A stretch of 20,791 nucleotides of DNA from a virus. Its lineage: Duplodnaviria > Heunggongvirae > Uroviricota > Caudoviricetes. The notes beneath the pieces were generated by a model. It saw nothing but the letters and a program-made list of their open reading frames with translations, was not told the origin of the DNA and did not search any database. The stretch lies in IMG/VR virus record IMGVR_UViG_2563366825_000026, positions 1-20,791 of that record. One strand, given 5' to 3'. Below, one piece after another: positions 3,143 through 20,791 of the stretch; the stretch's first letter is position 1; each line of letters opens with the position of its first letter. A program made the translations under genes and the position numbers.

Positions 3143-5125
3143 TTATGCTGATTCCCGGTTTTCGTTAACTTTGACTGTGACCGTATCAAGCAGTACCGGA
3201 TACGTCGCTTTTGCCCCCGTGATATCTGTCAGCGTCAGCGTATCTGCTGTAAAGCCATCATTTGTCCACATCACCAGGTCAAACGCAGACTGCTCTGCAT
3301 CATCAATCACCGGCACCACTTTTTCGCTGTTATTTCCCGCAAAGCGGAAAACAACTGTATGCCAGTTATGGTCAAATGCCCCAAATGTGCCCAGTTGCGC
3401 ATTCGACTCCCCCTTGTGGTACATCAGATTCAGATTTGATGCATCCGTCTGAAGGAAGAAGGACGCCAGCATGCTGTTTGCTGTCGCGCCTGACGCCCAC
3501 TGCGACACCGGCCAGTACAGACCAAAGACAAACTGACCGTTAACCAGTTCGACACCCTCCGGGATCTTAAACCGCACGGCAATTTCACCTCCCTTACTGA
3601 GAAGATTTTTTGCCTCCTCCACCGCAACAGTACGGAACATCTTCCAGGAGGTCAGTTTACCCGGCTGTTTTTCCAGTCGCAGCGCCTTCCTGCCACTGTC
3701 ATCCGTCACAGTGCCTTTACCACCGGACGCATTCCACTGCTGCTCTGTCCATACACCACTGCCACTGTTCGCATCATATCCGGCCACCATTCTTGTTACG
3801 GCTTCAGTATGACCGCCTGCAGAAATACCTGCACCCTGCTGTTGCGTCGGACCCGCAGAGCCAGACTGTGCATCCCCCGTGGAGGCTGGCGTGGTCGCCA
3901 GCGGTGCAGACTGCCCGCTCAGGAACGGCAGCAAACGCCCGGCTCGCACCAGTATCTCTCCTGCCAGCCGATCTGAAACAATGCCTCTTCGCGCCCAGGA
4001 GCTGAAGTGCGTTTTACGAGCGGCTGTCGTCCAGTTACCATTACTGCGTGACGCGGCACCATAGTATCCCGCCGTGATAATGTCCGGATCTTCTGACGGC
4101 TCGTTTGTCGGCACATTCGCACCATGCTCATCCGTCATCAACGGCACAAAGTGAATATTCTGCGCCGCCTTGCCTTTATAGCCTCCGTAAACCGCCTCAT
4201 ACTGCACTGCATACTTCGCCTTCCAGTCGTACGTGGTGTCACCGCAAATCCACGGGACGCCGGACGTTGTCCCGCCAATACACTGGTCTGCAATATCTGC
4301 CAGGTCTGCACGGTATTTATTTACCATGGCAAGAAAAAGTGCATTGTGCTCTGCATGTCTCCCCGAACTGACATCTTTTTCCCCCTGCATCCAGATCACC
4401 GACAACAGCACGTTTTTCGGATTTTTCTTCAGGGCTGCACGCGTTCTGCTGACCAGGTCACGATACAACGGTTTATCCACCCCCCACAGGGAAGAGCCCG
4501 CTGTCGCACCCGACGCCTCATTAAACGCGCCCTCTGCTCCCGCAGTAAATCCCGAATCGCCACGTCCACACGGGACAAGAAGGATCCCCGCACGGGCAGG
4601 CATAAACGGCAGCAGTTTTTTGGCCACATGCAGGGCATGCCCCACACAGCCATACTGCCCTTTATTGAGGTCTGCTTTCGGGTGATTCAGATTACTCACG
4701 TCCTGCACATCATGCAGACAATGGTCTGCAGGAATAATGTCGTTATATGCACAGGCCGCACCGCCCGGTGTCACCGTGCTGCGACGCGCCAGTTGCTTAA
4801 TACGCGGGTCAGGACGATCATACGTATCCGGCAGCGGCAGCCCCTCGCCAAAAGACATCGAGTTGGACTGCCCGGCCAGCGCAATGACAAAGTAATATTC
4901 CGGTTCGCTGGTGGTGCTGATAACAGCGCCACCATCACCCGACGGTTGCACCACCACCGGTGTGGTGACATCACCTTCCGCCGCAATGGCCTGCATCAGG
5001 GTATAGGGCGTGATGGCGACAGGGCTGCCAAATGGCTGCCACCCCTCCTTCAGTTTTTGAGTCAGTCGCTCCGCAAGGTCTGACGGCGACGCCGCCCTGA
5101 CCACGTCATAGTGTTTAAATGTCAT
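3143..5125 (-). CDS. nanS: prophage-encoded sialate O-acetylesterase, NanS-p-like (N-terminal DUF1737-like region + SASA/SGNH esterase domain + C-terminal domain)
   Basis: 660 aa; ATG at 5125 with GGGAGG upstream. The FVIALAGQSNSMSFGEG block is the esterase-type GQSN motif. Size and architecture match the NanS-p proteins found just upstream of the lysis genes in Stx-type lambdoid prophages. Confidence 0.8.
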   Translation of the reverse strand: MTFKHYDVVRAASPSDLAERLTQKLKEGWQPFGSPVAITPYTLMQAIAAEGDVTTPVVVQPSGDGGAVISTTSEPEYYFVIALAGQSNSMSFGEGLPLPDTYDRPDPRIKQLARRSTVTPGGAACAYNDIIPADHCLHDVQDVSNLNHPKADLNKGQYGCVGHALHVAKKLLPFMPARAGILLVPCGRGDSGFTAGAEGAFNEASGATAGSSLWGVDKPLYRDLVSRTRAALKKNPKNVLLSVIWMQGEKDVSSGRHAEHNALFLAMVNKYRADLADIADQCIGGTTSGVPWICGDTTYDWKAKYAVQYEAVYGGYKGKAAQNIHFVPLMTDEHGANVPTNEPSEDPDIITAGYYGAASRSNGNWTTAARKTHFSSWARRGIVSDRLAGEILVRAGRLLPFLSGQSAPLATTPASTGDAQSGSAGPTQQQGAGISAGGHTEAVTRMVAGYDANSGSGVWTEQQWNASGGKGTVTDDSGRKALRLEKQPGKLTSWKMFRTVAVEEAKNLLSKGGEIAVRFKIPEGVELVNGQFVFGLYWPVSQWASGATANSMLASFFLQTDASNLNLMYHKGESNAQLGTFGAFDHNWHTVVFRFAGNNSEKVVPVIDDAEQSAFDLVMWTNDGFTADTLTLTDITGAKATYPVLLDTVTVKVNENRESA

Positions 5126-5348: not shown

Positions 5349-5696
5349 GTCCATAAGAAAGCCCCTCCGGAGAGGGGCTGGAGAGTGGCGCTATGTGCCA
5401 TTGCATGGTGCCGGGTGCCTCCCGGTGAGTTCAGTATCAGCACCTGAACCCGCACAGAAAGGATAAGGGTCGGTGACAAAACACCAGTTGCTGATTGCCC
5501 CTCCGCACAGGGGGATTCACCATGCCAGTTTCTTTTAACAAACTCCCCGCAAACCAGACAACAGTCAACCGCCTGAATTGTGAGGTATTTAAAAATTTCA
5601 ACGGGTAACTGATACCCTGCTAATCGCCTGATGCTTTCTTTTTCAGCAACGGGGAAGCAACAACCACCACACCCACCAGCCGCCCATTTACCACAA

Positions 5697-6023: not shown

Positions 6024-6112
6024 ATAAAAAACCCGCCAGGCGGCGGGTTTAAGTTGTGTGGCGTAGTAACCACTCTTAACATACTGACATACTTTTTGCG
6101 GACCGCGCTAAT
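6024..6112 (-). promoter_or_regulatory. late-promoter region: putative PR'-like promoter and qut region followed by a tR'-like intrinsic terminator
   Basis: Just downstream of the Q-like stop on the minus strand: stem CCCGCC/GGCGGG (6032-6047) followed by UUUUUUAU. About 35-60 nt upstream lie an A-rich tract and weak sigma70-like hexamers (TGATTA - 17 - TATGTC). Geometry matches the lambda PR'/6S RNA/tR' arrangement; the exact hexamers are uncertain. Confidence 0.5.
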
Positions 6113-6500
6113 CATTTTTTACTTTTTTGGGCAGCCAGTCGTCCATCTCCAGCCTTACACCCAGCATCGACAGACATCCGTCAATAAATCCTTCAGCAAT
6201 CTGCATCTCAATTCGTATTGCCTTTTCGCTCTTCTTTCTTGTTCTGGCAATCTGCCTTTTTGATATGCGCAGCAGATAATGAGCTACCAGCAGCGAATAC
6301 TCGTCCGGTTTTTTCTTCTTCAGGCGCGTAAGGCAGTTTTCGATGATAAGGCCGTCATCATCGCTGCAGGCCGGGCGAGGTTTAGCGGTGGATGGTAAAA
6401 GGCCTTTAAATCCAGCAGCTATCGGAGAATAGTCCACCCCGGTGTTACCACTTGCCGCCCATGCCCCCCAGCGTTCAAGAACCATCTGAATATCACGCAT
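6108..6500 (-). CDS. Q: late-gene antitermination protein Q-like (short Q family, about 130 aa)
   Basis: ATG at 6500 with GGAGA 6 nt upstream (the track ORF starts at a TTG at 6515). Position is diagnostic: last gene before the tR'-like terminator and the late genes, directly after the nin-region genes. Family identity is from memory of short Q proteins and is unverified. Confidence 0.6.
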   Translation of the reverse strand: MRDIQMVLERWGAWAASGNTGVDYSPIAAGFKGLLPSTAKPRPACSDDDGLIIENCLTRLKKKKPDEYSLLVAHYLLRISKRQIARTRKKSEKAIRIEMQIAEGFIDGCLSMLGVRLEMDDWLPKKVKND

Positions 6501-6517
6501 CAACTTTCTCCACAAAA

Positions 6518-7513
6518 TCAGGACAGCACACCAATCGCCAGTGCGCGATCGATAAAACGAAATATCAGCTCCAGTTGGGAACCATACTTCTCTTCAAATG
6601 CCACGGTATCCACATGCAGTTCGTCATGGTGTTTTCTGCACAAAGGCAACACAAAGAGATCATGCGCTTTTGTCCCCATACCACCCTGGCCGTGACCAAT
6701 CAGATGATGCGGATCATCAGCTGGCTTTCCACAACATGCACACGGCTGCGTCTTAACCCAGCGAGTGTACTTTTCATTAACCCAGCGACGACGTTTGGGG
6801 CGTAACATAAAAGACTCCGGCGACTCCGGATCCACTTTCAGCGCCAGCACCTTTTTCGCTTTATCCCGGATAATACTGGTGGCAGTAACCGAAGGTACAA
6901 GGTCACTCTCCCGGGTGACAGACGGCAAAACAGGCTTCGGTAATCTCAGGGCCTTACGGGCTGCACTTTCCGGTAAAGCATCCGCCAGGTCATTACGAAC
7001 CAGCCACCAGCACAGTTCCGGCATTGTCACAACGTGACTGTCATCAAAACCAAGATCACGGCGCACAACAGACAACACCCAGCGGGCACAGTTATCCGTT
7101 GCCATTGCTTCCAGCCGTTCCGTGAACTGGTCACGGAGAAGATTGTCACAGTGCCAGCACAGACGGATTGCGCCTGGCGCGTGCCGCATTGTGGTCATGT
7201 TCTCGCTGTGCCAGTCGGAATGAGGCCACTGACAGCCCTTTTCACGAAGTAACCAGCTCTCAAGGCATTCCACGCCACCAGCACGACGGATCACCGCCTC
7301 ATGGCGGAACACGGCCCGAACGGCAGGATCATCCGCCAGCGGTTGTGATGATGCCGGAACGGCACCACTGGCAAAAGATGAATAACGTTCCGGCTCAGGC
7401 TCCAGCAGGACACGCCCCTGCATAAACAGGGGCATCAGCTCTGAACCTGGCCTGAACAATACGATCCCCATACGCGGGGCGATTTCAGGGGTCAGTAGTG
7501 CTCTCACGGTCAC
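6518..7513 (-). CDS. DUF968-family phage protein (YdfU-like) with C-terminal HNH-like Cys/His motif
   Basis: 331 aa. The C-terminal CACCGKPADDPHHLIGHGQGG...LCRKHHDELH is an HNH/zinc-finger-like signature typical of DUF968 proteins found upstream of Q in lambdoid prophages. Start codon uncertain (GTG at 7513 or 7507, ATG at 7471). Confidence 0.65.
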   Translation of the reverse strand: MTVRALLTPEIAPRMGIVLFRPGSELMPLFMQGRVLLEPEPERYSSFASGAVPASSQPLADDPAVRAVFRHEAVIRRAGGVECLESWLLREKGCQWPHSDWHSENMTTMRHAPGAIRLCWHCDNLLRDQFTERLEAMATDNCARWVLSVVRRDLGFDDSHVVTMPELCWWLVRNDLADALPESAARKALRLPKPVLPSVTRESDLVPSVTATSIIRDKAKKVLALKVDPESPESFMLRPKRRRWVNEKYTRWVKTQPCACCGKPADDPHHLIGHGQGGMGTKAHDLFVLPLCRKHHDELHVDTVAFEEKYGSQLELIFRFIDRALAIGVLS

Positions 7514-7514
7514 C

Positions 7515-8330
7515 TCAATGAACGGTATCGAGCAGCTTTAACAGCTCAGGGAATCGGGATTCGAAGAAATGCGGCTGCGTCTCGCGCGGATTTGCAGGAC
7601 TGGTGATGTTCTTGCCGAACATGCAGCCTTTCGCTGTCAGCGACCAGAATTTTTTGATGTTGTTAATCGCGGTACGGCTGTATCGTTCGCGTTGTTCAAC
7701 GATCCCCAGCTTCGCCATCTGGTGATATGCCTGATTAGCCGTCAGGCGGATACCATACTGCTTCAGCAGTGCACTCAGCGACAGCGTAGGGCGGCTTGAA
7801 CCATCTGGCGCATCAGCAGGTGCATCAATGGCATAGATCGGCATAAGTTCAGGAAGACCAGCTACCTTTGATAATTTCTGGTATGCACCAAGTTTCGAGG
7901 AGTTTGACAGATTTAGAGTCTTTGCTGCTGATTCAAGCAGAATGACCCCGGATTTAATTTTGTCGGATGTGGTTTCTTCTGGTGATGAATTATGAAGCGC
8001 ATCAAAAGTACGTATCACTTTTAAGCTGAATGCCGGGCTGATCCACATTGCATATGCATAGACCAGCTCTTTACAGACATACGTCCCACCATTGCGCCCC
8101 TGAATGGTGATGACAGGAATACTACGGGAATCTCCCGTAGTTTCTTCTTCCAATAATTCCACAAGAGCCTTCGTTTCAGGACGACGCATAAACTCGTGAA
8201 CTTCCAGCGAACGGGAGGAGCGATTCTCACCAGCGGCAAGAAGAGCAGCTTTCTGAAGGTCGTTAAGACAGTAGTTAGATTCGAAGTACTGGCGCACAGA
8301 AACGCCATCAATTACAAGCAACTGATTCAT
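7515..8330 (-). CDS. KilA-N domain protein (antirepressor / Roi-like or BstA-like)
   Basis: ATG at 8330 with GGAGA 6 nt upstream. The N-terminal block VCKELVYAYAMWISPAFSLKVIRTFD is KilA-N/APSES-like; the C-terminal half is unassigned. It is the only gene in this operon with a long (about 150 bp) upstream intergenic region. Confidence 0.7.
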   Translation of the reverse strand: MNQLLVIDGVSVRQYFESNYCLNDLQKAALLAAGENRSSRSLEVHEFMRRPETKALVELLEEETTGDSRSIPVITIQGRNGGTYVCKELVYAYAMWISPAFSLKVIRTFDALHNSSPEETTSDKIKSGVILLESAAKTLNLSNSSKLGAYQKLSKVAGLPELMPIYAIDAPADAPDGSSRPTLSLSALLKQYGIRLTANQAYHQMAKLGIVEQRERYSRTAINNIKKFWSLTAKGCMFGKNITSPANPRETQPHFFESRFPELLKLLDTVH

Positions 8331-8393
8331 TGGTTTCTCCACAAATTTTTATCCACGAGCGGGACTGCACTCCCTTTTCGTTGATGCAGGATG

Positions 8394-8445
8394 AACTTAC
8401 TGCGATTTTTAATAGTTATCAAGGATACACTGTTCATAAATACAG
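8394..8445 (-). promoter_or_regulatory. promoter of the KilA-N gene with a LexA (SOS) box
   Basis: CTGT-N8-ACAG at 8430-8445 (cACTGTtcataaatACAGta), a near-consensus LexA box with AT-rich spacer. On the minus strand, candidate sigma70 elements are TTGATA (8422-8417) - 17 nt - TAAGTT (8399-8394), or alternatively TGAACA inside the box - 16 nt - TATTAA (8414-8409). Confidence 0.55.
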
Positions 8446-8492
8446 TATCTTTAACGAGGTAATACCCAAATTTAGGGTGTTGCTCAATTCCG

Positions 8493-8888
8493 TTACCGAG
8501 TTGCTAATTTGCAACTCGCTTTTTCGTACTTACTGATAGTGATCTCGACCTTCCCTTCCGGGATAACCGGTCCCCACTCCACCAGCATTCTTTTCACCTG
8601 GCTGTCGTCTTCCCACACACCCGCGTGGGTCAGGGCGTCAAACAGCGCCTTGTTATAGTTGTCCAGATCGCGGATCCGGTTATCCGGAGGAAACAACACG
8701 ATCTCCACTGAAGCAGGTGCCGACGTTGGTTTCGGCAGACGACGTAACTGCTCAACTATTGCTGCACACGCCGCGCTCTGGAATTTTCGCCCCGCCGCGC
8801 TTATCAGGCTCTTACCAGCAAACGCCCCTTTATTGGGGTGTCGCCAGTACGTGTTCACGCTGGGCGGAAAAGGCAGTATTAGCTTCAT
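8493..8888 (-). CDS. rusA: Holliday junction resolvase RusA (crossover junction endodeoxyribonuclease)
   Basis: 131 aa; LPFPPSVNTYWRH...DLDNYNKALFDALTHAGVWEDDSQV matches RusA family motifs as remembered from E. coli RusA (catalytic DLDN region). Start overlaps the upstream gene's stop (ATGA). Confidence 0.85.
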   Translation of the reverse strand: MKLILPFPPSVNTYWRHPNKGAFAGKSLISAAGRKFQSAACAAIVEQLRRLPKPTSAPASVEIVLFPPDNRIRDLDNYNKALFDALTHAGVWEDDSQVKRMLVEWGPVIPEGKVEITISKYEKASCKLATR

Positions 8889-9211
8889 ACTTTCAGGCCC
8901 CTCTCATGTAACCAGTGGGCTGCACGCAGCCTGGCGTTTGCCTCACCGGCAAGCAGGGCGCGGATAATCCCGACCGCCTCGCTGTCGTCGTCCTTCACCG
9001 CGGTATGAAGAGTGATACCCCGGGCCACGCCACGCTTTATCGTGATGACACCTTTTTTCTCCAGTGCGCGAAGATGCTCCACCGCTGCATTCACCGAACG
9101 GTATCCCAGCATGGTTGCCACCTCCTGATTGGTTGGCGGGAAGCCACGTTCTTTCTGATAAGAAATCAGCATATCCAGCACCTGCTGCTGGCATTGAGTT
9201 AATGTCGTCAT
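8885..9211 (-). CDS. LexA-like winged-helix DNA-binding protein (LexA N-terminal domain only, no S24 peptidase domain)
   Basis: 108 aa; LTQCQQQVLDMLISYQKERGFPPTNQEVATMLGYRSVNAAVEHLRALEKKGVI resembles the N-terminal domain of LexA (LTARQQEVFDLI...[34 protein letters not shown]). Translationally coupled to the genes on both sides. Confidence 0.7.
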   Translation of the reverse strand: MTTLTQCQQQVLDMLISYQKERGFPPTNQEVATMLGYRSVNAAVEHLRALEKKGVITIKRGVARGITLHTAVKDDDSEAVGIIRALLAGEANARLRAAHWLHERGLKV

Positions 9212-11170: not shown

Positions 11171-11391
11171 GCAGCACCTCCGAGATGCTTCATGTTTTTT
11201 CCGGAGCGAAAGGCTATAAGCGGCATACTGACGCGGTAATTACGGCCCAGCGGTTCACAAATCACCTTCTGACATTCACGGTCAACCAGGCTAACACGTA
11301 GAACATGCCCTGCAGGCGTGGTGTACCACTGACCCGGACGAGGACAACGGAAAGTATGATTGGTAAACCGTTTGAAAATATTCCGGATCAT
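11167..11391 (-). CDS. hypothetical protein (74 aa)
   Basis: ATG overlaps the Rha-protein stop (ATGA) and its stop overlaps the O-like start (ATGA), so it is translationally coupled on both sides. No family recognised. Confidence 0.4.
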   Translation of the reverse strand: MIRNIFKRFTNHTFRCPRPGQWYTTPAGHVLRVSLVDRECQKVICEPLGRNYRVSMPLIAFRSGKNMKHLGGAA

Positions 11392-12539
11392 TTGCGCCCC
11401 CTTACCTCTGAAGGGTTCAGCGACAAATTTATGAGACTGGCCAGTAGCGCCGCGTCGTTGATGCGGTCATACAGACTTACAGCCAGCGGGGATTCGGCTT
11501 TTGCCAACATGGGATAAAGCTGCTGCAGCCAGACCTGATGAATTGATGAAATGTAGGAATAGAGAACGCTGGCGTTATATGCAACGTCGCTCAGTACAGA
11601 GGGATTTGAAAGCTGTTTCTCCATCTGGTTAAAGGCATTGATGTATGCCTCTTTGAACCGGGCAGCACGTTTACCCGTGAAGCCCATGGCAAGAAACGCA
11701 AAACCGTCGCGGGTGATTTGGTAACAAGGGAGTTTGCGGCCTGATGCGTCGGTGTATTCACTTAACACAAAATTGTGTTCAGTAAATTCAGCGGAACATT
11801 CGAGGTTTCTAATTCTATCTAAAACCCGCTCATGCCGTTTAGTAAAGTAATTAGCTACTGCAAGAGATGTGGTGACAACGCGACCATTGATAATCGTGAT
11901 TTCAGGGTGAGATTGGGTTGGGAGAGTAGTCATGGTGACAGCCCCTATGTTGAATTCAATGAACTCACCACCAAGGCTTTCCACGACCATATAGGTGGTG
12001 AGACGTACAGGGGTGGAAATACCGGTCAACATAGAACCCGGCCCAACCGAAGTTGGCCCTGCACGCCCCACCATAATTTGGGCGTAACGATGCTCATGAC
12101 ACGAAAAAACCGCATGAGCGCGGTTGTGCTCTATATTGAATTTCGGGTTTCCACGCCCGGCACCCGCTTTATAAGGTGCCTGAACAGTGTAACGTCCCGG
12201 AATTGCAGAATCAATATGCTGGTGGTCCTTCACACTCAACAAAATCACGCCTGAATTTCCACAAAGGACTAAAGCACTCATGCGGGTAGTCTTTGCGAAG
12301 ATAGATAACGCGCTGTGTTTCTGGCTCCCAACGAATAACATGGACATAAAGCCCTCTTCCGTCACGAAACCAGCGGTTAAGTTCCTGCACAACTCGCCCC
12401 CCACAGTCAGGTAAAGTTCTCTGTGGTTACTTACAGCCAGGTGATTTGGTAATCTGCATTCATGCCGTAACAACAGGTGTTCAGCGACGCTGACCACCAG
12501 CTGTTGCGACAAACGGTTATTTGCCGTTAAACTATTCAT
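11388..12539 (-). CDS. Rha-domain phage regulatory protein with an N-terminal extension of about 200 aa of unknown function
   Basis: Residues from about 203 (MTTLPTQSHPEITIINGRVVTTSLAVANYFTKRHERVLDRIRNLECSAEF...DGFAFLAMGFTGKRAARFKEAYINAFNQME) match the Rha domain, which is usually N-terminal. An internal ATG at 11933 with an AGGGG SD could give a 181-aa Rha-only product. The 12539 ATG overlaps the upstream stop (ATGA), supporting the long form. Confidence 0.6.
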   Translation of the reverse strand: MNSLTANNRLSQQLVVSVAEHLLLRHECRLPNHLAVSNHRELYLTVGGELCRNLTAGFVTEEGFMSMLFVGSQKHSALSIFAKTTRMSALVLCGNSGVILLSVKDHQHIDSAIPGRYTVQAPYKAGAGRGNPKFNIEHNRAHAVFSCHEHRYAQIMVGRAGPTSVGPGSMLTGISTPVRLTTYMVVESLGGEFIEFNIGAVTMTTLPTQSHPEITIINGRVVTTSLAVANYFTKRHERVLDRIRNLECSAEFTEHNFVLSEYTDASGRKLPCYQITRDGFAFLAMGFTGKRAARFKEAYINAFNQMEKQLSNPSVLSDVAYNASVLYSYISSIHQVWLQQLYPMLAKAESPLAVSLYDRINDAALLASLINLSLNPSEVRGRK

Positions 12540-14113: not shown

Positions 14114-14137
14114 AACCTGCTTCGGCAGGTTTTTTTA
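14114..14137 (+). terminator. intrinsic terminator after the repressor gene
   Basis: Stem AACCTGC (14114-14120), loop TTCG, stem GCAGGTT (14125-14131), then a T-run (14131-14137). Confidence 0.7.
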
Positions 14138-14140
14138 TAC

Positions 14141-14169
14141 TTGACAATGTACCCTTGAGATACATAATG
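14141..14169 (+). promoter_or_regulatory. PL-like early-left promoter with overlapping operator
   Basis: TTGACA (14141-14146) - 16 nt - CATAAT (14163-14168). The spacer carries ATGTACCCTTGAGATACAT (14147-14165), the same ATGTAC-N7-TACAT palindrome type as the operators next to cro. Confidence 0.6.
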
Positions 14170-14582
14170 TATCTAAAAGAAACATGTCACAGGCAAGATT
14201 AAACAAAATTTGGTTGTAACACGGCGTATGGCACATGCGTCGTTAGCGGTCTGGGGACGTTAAAGGGGACAATCCACTCCTTGCTCGGGCAAACAAACCA
14301 GGTAGCCGGAATGTGCAAGTCAATGAGGATGCTGATAAGACGCCTAACCAGCGTGGCGATTCGGTTTGACGCCTGGGAAGAGACCAGGACGCAACGATGA
14401 GAGCATTTATGGAGCCGCGACAAAGTGTGGTGCCGTAACTGGCTAAGTGCTCTCAGCGTTGTGGTGAATGCGCAGGCTGATGCGCGAAAGACATTGCAGC
14501 TATTGCGGAAAAGAGCTGTTCGGCGGGGCAATTAAACGCCCGTGAGAGTCTGAAATAACCGCAAGCCGGAGATCAGCACCGG

Positions 14583-14739: not shown

Positions 14740-14788
14740 TGGAGAAACCAACCGACCTTGCAGGGTCGATATGATGAGGAGCAGCAAA

Positions 14789-19477: not shown

Positions 19478-20791
19478 ATGGATAAAGTCAAATATCCAAC
19501 AGGCGTCGAAAACCACGGCGGCACATTACGCATCTGGTTTAATTTTAAAGGTAAACGTGTCAGGGAAAATCTTGGTGTCCCTGACACTGCCAAGAACAGG
19601 AAGATCGCCGGGGAACTGCGGACATCGGTATGTTTTGCCATCCGCACAGGAAGCTTTGATTATGCTGCACAGTTCCCTGACTCCCCCAACCTTCAGGCTT
19701 TTGGGGTAAGTAAAAAAGAAATTACGGTGAAGGAACTTGAAGAAAAGTGGCTGGATCTGAAACGAATGGAAATCTCTGCAAATGCATTCAATCGCTATGA
19801 ATCCGTTGCAAGAACGATGGTTTCGAAAATTGGAGGCAGTAGACTGGTGTCATCGGTAACCAAAGAGGAATTGCTGTATATCAGGAAAGATTTGCTAACC
19901 GGGTATCAGAATTCAACGAAAAACAAAGCAGCAGCAAAAGGACGGAGCGTCGTTACTGTAAATTATTACATGACGACAATCGCTGGAATGTTTCAGTTTG
20001 CTGCAGATCACGGTTACTTAGAAGCAAATCCCTTCCAGGGAATTAAGCCTCTTAAAAGAGCCAGGGCAGAGCCAGATCCGCTAACTCGTGACGAATTTAT
20101 TCGCCTGATAGATGCTTGCCGACATCAGCAGACGAAAAACCTGTGGTCATTGGCTGTGTACACAGGAATGCGTCACGGTGAACTGGTCTCCCTGGCCTGG
20201 GAAGATATCGATCTGAAGGCAGGAACAATTACCATCAGGCGCAATTATACGAAACTTGGTGAGTTCACTCTACCGAAAACTGAAGCAAGCACAAACAGGG
20301 TTGTGCACCTTATCCAGCCCGCTATCAGTGTCCTGAAAAATCAGGCTGAAATGACAAGACTGGGTAAGCAGTACAACATCAAGGTGCAACTACGTGAATA
20401 TGGACGTTCAGTGAACCATGAATGTACTTTCGTGTTTAACCCTCAAGTGGTTAGAAAAAGCGAACAGGTAGGTTTTGTCTACAAAGTCGATTCTGTAGGT
20501 GACTCATGGGAAACAGCCATTAAGCGTGCAGGGATCAGGCATCGAAAGGCATACCAGTCACGACACACTTATGCGTGCTGGTCATTATCTGCCGGAGCAA
20601 ACCCAAGCTTCATTGCCAGCCAGATGGGCCATGCAAGTGCCCAGATGGTATTCAATGTATACGGAGCATGGATGACTGACAGCAATGCAGAACAGATCGC
20701 AATGCTGAATCAGAAGCTGACAGATTATGTCCCAATGATGCCCCATAGTCACCAAAGTGACACCAGAGGCTTATTAAAATCAGTAAGTTAA
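19478..20791 (+). CDS. int: tyrosine site-specific integrase (lambda Int family)
   Basis: 437 aa with TGGAGGT SD. Catalytic-domain signatures (R...HxxR...Y: RHGELVSLAWEDID, SRHTYACWSL, MVFNVYGAWM). The stop codon is the last three bases of the window. Confidence 0.9.
   Translation: MDKVKYPTGVENHGGTLRIWFNFKGKRVRENLGVPDTAKNRKIAGELRTSVCFAIRTGSFDYAAQFPDSPNLQAFGVSKKEITVKELEEKWLDLKRMEISANAFNRYESVARTMVSKIGGSRLVSSVTKEELLYIRKDLLTGYQNSTKNKAAAKGRSVVTVNYYMTTIAGMFQFAADHGYLEANPFQGIKPLKRARAEPDPLTRDEFIRLIDACRHQQTKNLWSLAVYTGMRHGELVSLAWEDIDLKAGTITIRRNYTKLGEFTLPKTEASTNRVVHLIQPAISVLKNQAEMTRLGKQYNIKVQLREYGRSVNHECTFVFNPQVVRKSEQVGFVYKVDSVGDSWETAIKRAGIRHRKAYQSRHTYACWSLSAGANPSFIASQMGHASAQMVFNVYGAWMTDSNAEQIAMLNQKLTDYVPMMPHSHQSDTRGLLKSVS

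Follow-up and report, generated by a model that had tools for sequence, protein, structure and literature searches.

A near-consensus LexA box in front of a KilA-N/DUF968 gene pair points to a candidate SOS-controlled transcription unit in a family of lambdoid prophages

In the prophages Gifsy-1, -2 and -3, a LexA box located downstream of the replication genes, after a terminator-like palindrome, drives a separate SOS unit that encodes a DinI homologue and a small antirepressor (Lemire et al. 2011, PMC3121763). Coliphage 186, with Tum, and N15, with AntC, likewise have a LexA-repressed promoter outside the immunity region that serves as an SOS input (as cited in PMC3121763), and the antirepressors of Gifsy, 186 and N15 all serve repressors that are not cleaved (PMC3121763). 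Here we analyze a LexA box at positions 8447-8428 (read on the minus strand) in front of a KilA-N gene (7515..8330, minus strand; ATG 8330, stop 7515, 271 amino acids). Both lie in a 20,791-nucleotide stretch of Caudoviricetes DNA (IMG/VR record IMGVR_UViG_2563366825_000026, positions 1 to 20,791), hereafter the window. The LexA-controlled unit of the Gifsy phages is the closest known arrangement, as it occupies the same part of the genome with different cargo. In both cases a lambdoid prophage carries the box outside the immunity region, a palindrome precedes the box, and a transcription unit of its own, putative in the window, is set within the rightward operon. The Gifsy cargo is, however, a DinI homologue and a small antirepressor acting on a non-cleavable repressor, whereas here it would be KilA-N, DUF968 and probably the antiterminator Q, and the Gifsy box lies 19 bp from the ATG, compared with 99 bp, and upstream of the -35 hexamer, in the window. 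The products of 186 and N15 are small antirepressors, and we detected no similarity in sequence or domains between them and the KilA-N protein.

The 20-mer TACTGTATTTATGAACAGTG at 8447-8428 has the core CTGT-N8-ACAG, and CTGTTCATAAATACAG was found at 8430-8445, precisely where a sequence-only reading of this DNA had placed a textbook LexA box. Sixteen of its 20 positions agree with the consensus TACTGTATATATATACAGTA, all CTGT and ACAG positions included. The site was then scored by the heterology index of Berg and von Hippel, for which we compiled 29 Escherichia coli SOS boxes ourselves in place of a published matrix, so that the absolute values are our own. On this scale the box has an index of 5.59, which places it about 11th among the 29 boxes, ahead of some 18 of them, and inside the range that proven boxes span. 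Among 2000 first-order Markov windows there was none with 5.59 or better; an index of 8 was reached by 0.6% and one of 11.2 by 10% of them. The CTGT-N8-ACAG palindrome occurs four times in the window against 0.42 expected, and the three further copies are in coding sequence with poor scores (>15). By these measures, the box is a near-consensus LexA site and the sole strong one in the window, and the textbook designation stands. The second-best LexA-like site of the window, TACTGTAAATTATTACATGA (19954-19973), has an index of 11.2 and lies within a coding region.

Similar boxes recur at orthologous loci. A 20-member protein alignment was used as query against one genome per species and returned 79 loci, of which 44 species-level loci with a full N-terminus were examined for boxes with an index of <=12 between -160 and -60 from the ATG. 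LexA-like boxes were present in this zone in 13 of the 44 loci against 0.13 expected from the remainder of the same loci (277,000 positions), or about 100-fold over background, and the simpler pattern CTG-N10-CAG was found in the same zone at seven loci against 2.0 expected. The sites vary (CTGTTCAAACATACAG, CTGGTTACATGACCAG, CTGGATGTTTGTTCAG, CTGTATGAATGATCAG and others) and retain xTG-N10-CAG. In Pantoea brenneri and Rosenbergiella, the box covers the -35 and the spacer of the sole promoter-like site (9/12 consensus matches), and in Erwinia it covers the -10 and the start of the sole promoter-like site (10/12); at these loci (L020, L022, L042) it overlaps the only good promoter. The overlap in Pantoea brenneri, Rosenbergiella and Erwinia is the classical geometry of repression. 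Most relatives have a KilA-N gene with neither a box nor a promoter of its own, as a plain member of the delayed-early operon. The recurrence of boxes at orthologous promoters indicates that LexA-type control of the KilA-N gene has been maintained, or independently acquired, across several genera.

Since the LexA box is genuine, far better than chance would produce and matched by similar boxes at orthologous loci, SOS control of the transcription unit that follows it is plausible. We put at roughly 55% the probability that an internal promoter in front of the KilA-N/DUF968 pair is controlled by LexA and inducible by the SOS response. The cI-like repressor of the same phage (13428-14102) has a Peptidase_S24 domain (Pfam, E 1.5e-26) and carries QA/G, GDSM and FKRL motifs, and from these features it looks cleavable with the help of RecA. 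Because cI looks cleavable, SOS control of the KilA-N unit would be a second SOS input. The sequence-only reading had noted the S24 autocleavage domain, which Pfam and the motifs bear out, and had proposed such a second input besides cI, which the cleavable-looking cI and the recurrent box support as plausible.

The sequence of events that we propose would run as follows. In the lysogen, cI would shut pR, and a dimer of host LexA on the box at 8447-8428 would silence an internal sigma-70 promoter (TTGATA-17-TAAGTT), possibly together with a second one (TTGGGT-16-TACTGT). Upon DNA damage, active RecA would promote the self-cleavage of LexA and the internal promoter would fire. The resulting transcript would start with a leader of ~55 nt containing a conserved TGCAG-loop hairpin, encode KilA-N and, after a 7-nt gap, the DUF968/HNH protein, and probably continue into Q. 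In ordinary lytic growth, pR would supply the transcript of these genes, as in the relatives that lack the cassette.

The box is in a 162-bp gap (8331-8492) between the KilA-N gene and the gene for a RusA resolvase (8493..8888, minus strand), whose 3' end adjoins the gap. The minus-strand genes follow in the order CII-like, Rha/Ant-like, replication (helix-turn-helix/DnaD-like), PerC-like, Dam methylase, a 108-amino-acid protein with a LexA DNA-binding domain, RusA, the gap, KilA-N, DUF968/HNH and Q. Between 13105 and 6108, this is the sole gap of more than ~30 bp between minus-strand genes, all remaining junctions being overlaps or a few bases only, and the spacing of the open reading frames (ORFs) thus agrees with the earlier statement that 8331-8492 is the only long intergenic region of the early-right operon.

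Comparison with related phages revealed that the gap belongs to a mosaic segment. In Stx2a_1447, mEp460 and SfV, the distance from rusA to KilA-N is 19 bp and the box is absent. The window, SfIV and PhiR49_1 depart from these three phages in one block, from ~8522 to ~7838, with identity of >90% on either side. The segment as aligned (7838..8522, minus strand) comprises the last rusA codons, the 162-bp gap and ~165 KilA-N codons. The best explanation of this pattern is that the gap is a self-contained regulatory cassette, which would have been brought in by recombination together with a variant N-terminal half of KilA-N. Of 5426 complete E. coli genomes, 186 carry this long allele, in every case with rusA on one side and KilA-N on the other, and the 16-bp box core is unchanged in three E. 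coli variants that are 90-95% identical. The Shiga toxin (Stx) phages listed among the relatives matched only ~77-78% of the query. Two prophages of Shiga toxin-producing E. coli that carry the long allele were inspected and lack stx genes, and a linkage of the long allele to Stx was rejected on that account.

With the box embedded in a mosaic segment, one may ask if the palindrome is a functionless leftover of the insertion, and E. coli offers little variation with which to test for selection. A box score far beyond chance and the ~100-fold excess of LexA-like boxes in orthologous leaders of other genera nevertheless render this explanation very unlikely.

A sigma-70 promoter is predicted inside the gap (8394..8422, minus strand), with TTGATA as -35 (8422-8417), a 17-bp spacer and TAAGTT as -10 (8399-8394). 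The two hexamers have 8/12 consensus matches, under the threshold of our scan, and are conserved in an alignment of 11 leaders from 10 genera; in the -10, the T, the A and the final T (TAnnnT) are kept in at least 90% of the aligned leaders. The predicted transcription start falls near 8387, which would place the box core between about -58 and -43, with ~5 bp separating it from the -35 that follows. A possible second promoter can be read from the sequence (8442..8469, minus strand: TTGGGT 8469-8464, 16 bp, TACTGT 8447-8442); its -10 coincides with the left half of the box, it is weak, and the other genera lack it. Further downstream, the ribosome-binding region GTGGAGAAACCA together with the KilA-N ATG occupies 8328..8342 (minus strand), and its GTGGAG is invariant in the leader alignment. 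LexA bound upstream of the -35 could repress by blocking upstream contacts of RNA polymerase or, alternatively, it could act through the weak promoter TTGGGT-16-TACTGT.

Several points weigh against SOS control of this unit. A position upstream of the -35 is an unusual site for repression by LexA and is the weakest link of the SOS model. Both candidate promoters of the gap are weak, and a promoter consensus scan at 9/12 returned none in 8331-8492; the sigma70-like hexamers of the sequence-only reading are therefore only partly upheld, by the conservation of TTGATA and TAAGTT in the 11 leaders and not by the scan. Half of the close relatives have GTG for CTG in one half-site and would be poor LexA sites, and the invariance of the box within E. 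coli is a weak test, with ~10 substitutions in 160 bp among copies that are 90-100% identical. The scoring matrix itself was built on our own compilation of SOS boxes, and our literature search returned no publication on this box sequence and no experimental data on the locus. Finally, expression of Q driven by the SOS response from an otherwise uninduced prophage would cost the host.

The long allele also has a terminator-like hairpin on the plus strand (8497..8518), within the last rusA codons and followed by CTTTTTCG, that is found in this allele only. On the minus strand no T run comes after it, and one stem pair is broken in strain AZ187. The box could on this basis control a small plus-strand RNA (~8458-8526), antisense to the 3' end of rusA, which would start from GATACA-16-TATCTT and end at the hairpin 8497-8518 and its T run. 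The terminator-like site is on the appropriate strand and the box core exactly fills the spacer between the hexamers. These hexamers have only 7/12 consensus matches, though, and no convincing plus-strand promoter was found for the hairpin; AZ187 loses the final T of the -10 in addition to the stem pair, nothing comparable is present in other genera, and an Rfam match is absent. With weak hexamers and a natural variant in which the arrangement is broken, we rejected the small RNA, which we consider the least probable of the explanations discussed here.

The phage itself encodes a potential ligand of the box. Two genes upstream of KilA-N is the gene for the 108-amino-acid protein (8885..9211, minus strand), which has a LexA DNA-binding domain (PF01726, residues 1-65, E 2.9e-19), aligns with LexA residues 2-86 (E 6e-16; LexA structures 1lea and 3jso), and lacks an S24 domain, as expected of a truncated LexA made up of the winged-helix DNA-binding domain. 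Its recognition helix reads RSVNAAVEHL, compared with RSPNAAEEHL in E. coli LexA, and an A-G-E motif stands at the position of the LexA cleavage site with the protease domain absent. Phages of the Sf, Stx and mEp460 types widely carry this gene, and its homologues in other genera retain SPNAA and share a helical tail. No published function for it was found in the literature.

This protein raises the possibility, which we regard as unlikely and still worth entertaining, that the box is chiefly its operator. RecA could not inactivate the protein, which from about -50 would activate the weak promoter in lytic growth and boost KilA-N, DUF968 and Q, or would re-repress it after the loss of host LexA. 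Across the aligned LexA residues 2-70 (E 6e-16), S39, N41, A42, A43, E45 and H46 are kept, and the location of the box upstream of the -35, where activators bind, keeps such an activator site in contention. A precedent exists in phage GIL01, where gp6, a truncated LexA homologue, activates a late promoter by way of a palindrome whose centre is at -43.5 (Fornelos et al. 2018, PMC6182141). GIL01 resembles the phage described here in being temperate, in having LexA boxes by a promoter of late functions, putative in the window, and in encoding a LexA homologue reduced to the DNA-binding domain. Unlike it, GIL01 is a Bacillus tectivirus without a cI, and its gp6 palindrome, at -43.5, differs from that of LexA; an equivalent of GIL01 gp7 was not identified in the present phage, and binding of the box by the enterobacterial paralogue is putative.

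In the comparative data, all close relatives that have an upstream-type box and a known context carry a homologue of the 108-amino-acid gene, and GTG half-sites tend to go with a protein that has D instead of E45, a weak hint of such a role. When the comparison was limited to close relatives, which roughly controls for phylogeny, the box and the gene were nevertheless not associated (6/5/5/5; odds ratio 1.2, p = 1), and a link between the two was rejected. Boxes occur without the gene (L020, L022, L023, L026, L042), the gene without a box is common (Stx2a_1447, mEp460, SfV, L015, L016, L019), the box of the window is a near-perfect site for host LexA, and binding to a palindrome may be poor for a protein that lacks the LexA dimerisation domain. 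As the presence of the box is independent of the phage gene, host LexA appears to be the common binder. We therefore favor a model where host LexA would be the main ligand of the box, with the phage paralogue as a possible second player.

The KilA-N protein was examined for the functions that the sequence-only reading had offered, an antirepressor or a member of the BstA family of abortive-infection proteins. Its identification as a KilA-N domain protein held, since Pfam PF04383 matches residues 10-114 with 57.6 bits against a gathering cut-off of 23.8 (E 1.3e-15). Beyond this domain, the protein has long helices at ~118-157 and a winged-helix-like C-terminal domain at ~182-270; an AlphaFold model (predicted local distance difference test, pLDDT, 78) similarly gives two long helices between the KilA-N domain and an alpha/beta domain at the C terminus. 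The sole matches of the C-terminal domain are weak and are to winged-helix DNA binders such as PadR, RTP and MarR. Pfam run on the full 271 amino acids found nothing on the C-terminal half, and with 20 family members and E values up to 5 it gave only weak winged-helix matches there. A sequence profile search of the PDB was empty for this domain, Foldseek against the PDB returned nothing below E 0.6, and Foldseek against viral models returned KilA-N proteins only. The presence of ANT/KilAC or another named C-terminal domain was rejected, none of these searches having given such a match. From the domain matches and the model, the protein is probably a two-domain, DNA-binding protein, and its PHROG family (129) is labelled 'transcriptional regulator'. 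The founding KilA-N protein is KilA of phage P1. It is similar in having an N-terminal KilA-N domain, a length of ~270 amino acids and a temperate phage as its source, and it differs in that kilA is in the C1-controlled operon of the lytic replicon.

Gifsy, 186 and N15 have the layout seen at this locus, a palindrome and then a LexA box outside the immunity region, and together with the PHROG 129 label this layout could suggest that KilA-N is an SOS-controlled antirepressor, like Tum, AntC or GfoA, of the phage's own repressor or that of a co-resident prophage. Pfam (to E 5), PHROGs and NCBI-style names, however, gave no ANT/KilAC, Bro-N, Rha, Tum or Gfo similarity. The known LexA-controlled antirepressors serve non-cleavable repressors (PMC3121763), whereas the cI of the window has an S24 domain with cleavage-type motifs, and the phage already holds a separate Rha/Ant-like ORF associated with C4 and IsrK RNAs. 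Most orthologues, moreover, are boxless members of the delayed-early operon, nearly always beside a DUF968 nuclease-type protein. Taken together, these observations leave an antirepressor role quite improbable.

The Rha/Ant-like region is of interest on its own. Rfam matches at gathering level to C4 antisense RNA (82 bits) and IsrK (62 bits) lie at 11991-12179 (minus strand), inside the N-terminal part of a 383-amino-acid Rha/Ant-like ORF (11388-12539), and this part of the early right operon resembles the modules of P1 or Gifsy type that control an antirepressor.

BstA is a prophage protein with a KilA-N-type N-terminal domain, a second, C-terminal domain and a cis-acting DNA element at the 5' end of its gene (Owen et al. 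2021, PMC8585504), and the KilA-N protein of the window resembles it in this overall plan. An abortive-infection or exclusion function of the BstA type, switched by the SOS response and exerted by KilA-N with or without DUF968, could also be invoked from a PADLOC match to the candidate system PDC-S22 (residues 63-118, E 7.5e-10) and from the organization as a module with its own promoter, which is common in prophage accessory genes. The PADLOC match, however, is limited to the KilA-N core (56 of 281 profile positions). BstA of phage BTP1 was retrieved via its published aba sequence and compared directly, giving a BLASTP E value of 0.2 and an hhalign probability of 1.9%. The bstA genes are located by cI, downstream of it and sharing its promoter, while the KilA-N gene is between rusA and DUF968/Q, 5 kb from cI; aba, a DNA element of 63 bp, has no relation to the TGCAG hairpin, and most KilA-N orthologues are promoterless and part of a lytic operon. 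With no two-domain homology and a position that is not immediately downstream of the repressor gene, membership in the BstA family was rejected, and an exclusion function of this type seems improbable as well. Of the sequence-only reading, the proposal of SOS control is thus retained as likely, and its antirepressor and BstA interpretations found no support; the DUF968/HNH partner, Q, the mosaic gap, the phage LexA-domain gene and the leader hairpin had not figured in it.

The DUF968/HNH-type protein (YdfU-like; Pfam DUF968, E 3e-80) is encoded at 6518..7513 (minus strand), and the start annotated in relatives is the GTG at 7507, 7 nt past the KilA-N stop. From the DUF968 stop it is no more than ~20 nt to the start of the antiterminator gene Q (6108..6515, minus strand). 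Nearly every enterobacterial locus has DUF968 directly after KilA-N, and Q is usually next. A published description gives DUF968 an Orf(NinB)-like domain with an HNH motif attached and notes its fusion to recombinases and to RusA (PMC4118853). Our literature search gave no publication on KilA-N together with DUF968. Our best guess is that the two proteins are a DNA-binding subunit and a nuclease or recombination mediator, in a recombination-related nin region by RusA. No good minus-strand terminator was found between 8400 and 6108, and the first one past Q is at 5722-5705, so a transcript from the gap promoter would probably read through into Q. Past Q, a full-length match to the small RNA family STnc100 (143 bits) is located at 5349-5554 (minus strand), between Q and a NanS-p-like esterase gene; this is the position where Stx phages hold the stx genes, which the window lacks.

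Folding of the leader revealed a stem-loop directly 5' of the KilA-N ribosome-binding site (8351..8385, minus strand), with the core GGGA[GTGCAG]TCCC at 8374-8361 and outer pairs extending to 8385 and 8351. A (G/T)TGCAG loop on differing stems was observed in 31 of the 49 leaders compared, those of the window and 48 loci (occurrences in the L007-L065 leaders and in SfV at L088:30958-30973). The hairpin is present twice, in tandem, in Pantoea and Erwinia loci, and it also occurs in short alleles, there inside the last rusA codons. Covariation was analyzed on 28 distinct leaders anchored on the loop, so that the invariance of the loop is by construction and the covariation of the stem is not. 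All five stem pairs vary on both sides, and the covariation score was 0.694; shuffles gave 0.246 and slid partners no more than 0.317. Rfam has no family for the hairpin or the gap.

A second hairpin with a TTGCAG loop and a 7-bp stem, ACCGACC[TTGCAG]GGTCGAT, was found on the pL side (14751-14770, plus strand). The 15-mer TTTGTGGAGAAACCA, which also forms the KilA-N ribosome-binding region, precedes the hairpin from 14736 on, and ATGATGAGGAG and a 120-amino-acid ORF come after it; one pair of the stem is compensated between SfV and a prophage of E. coli O104:H4. A covariance model built on the hairpin lacked the power to identify new copies reliably (second match 14745-14777, E 0.13). The copy on the pL side could be taken to favor a nut/boxB site. 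Counted against this reading, which was rejected, were the terminators annotated in SfV upstream of the pL-side copy, the location of the 15-mer TTTGTGGAGAAACCA on opposite sides of the hairpin at the two sites, and a first pL-side ORF past the hairpin that is unlike an N protein. The likely pL itself is at 14135-14175 (plus strand; TTGACA, a spacer, CATAAT/TAATGT, and an ATGTA...TACAT palindrome), after a plus-strand terminator-like hairpin behind cI, with a leader of ~600 nt before the first ORF.

Other LexA-like boxes were encountered in the related prophages. Several of them, from different genera, have a strong box (index 4-5) over codons 3-9 of a late-region DNA methyltransferase gene (SfV, L088, 34170-34189; L086, 13464-13483; L011, 6156; L026, 5951; L047, 5460), and this gene with its box is absent from the window. 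In the prophage of E. coli O104:H4 C227-11 (L086), TACTGTTTTTACATACAGTA at 3855-3874 has an index of 3.3 and is inside the coding region of a cI-type repressor, so that this prophage has three strong LexA-like boxes within 18 kb.

The combination of a LexA box, a non-cleavable phage LexA-domain protein and a promoter ahead of Q could, in a speculative and rather unlikely extension, be a two-LexA timing circuit of an enterobacterial lambdoid phage, comparable to that of GIL01. Until the SOS response sets in, host LexA would close off a cI-independent route to the expression of KilA-N, DUF968 and Q, and the paralogue made from pR would then take over the box, and possibly also host SOS boxes and the LexA boxes of related prophages, acting as an activator from about -50 or as a RecA-resistant repressor. 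The module would further include the TGCAG-loop hairpin as a new RNA element acting in cis.

Control of the promoter by LexA would provide this family of prophages with a direct SOS input around cI. Such an input would reach a gene pair that is conserved and uncharacterised, and probably also Q, the switch for the lysis genes. In related phages Q also governs the Shiga toxin genes, but the aligned Stx2a_1447 has the boxless allele. The finding also points to a covarying RNA hairpin outside any RNA family described in Rfam, and it offers a concrete, testable target for a class of proteins common among Sf and Stx-type phages, those with a LexA DNA-binding domain.

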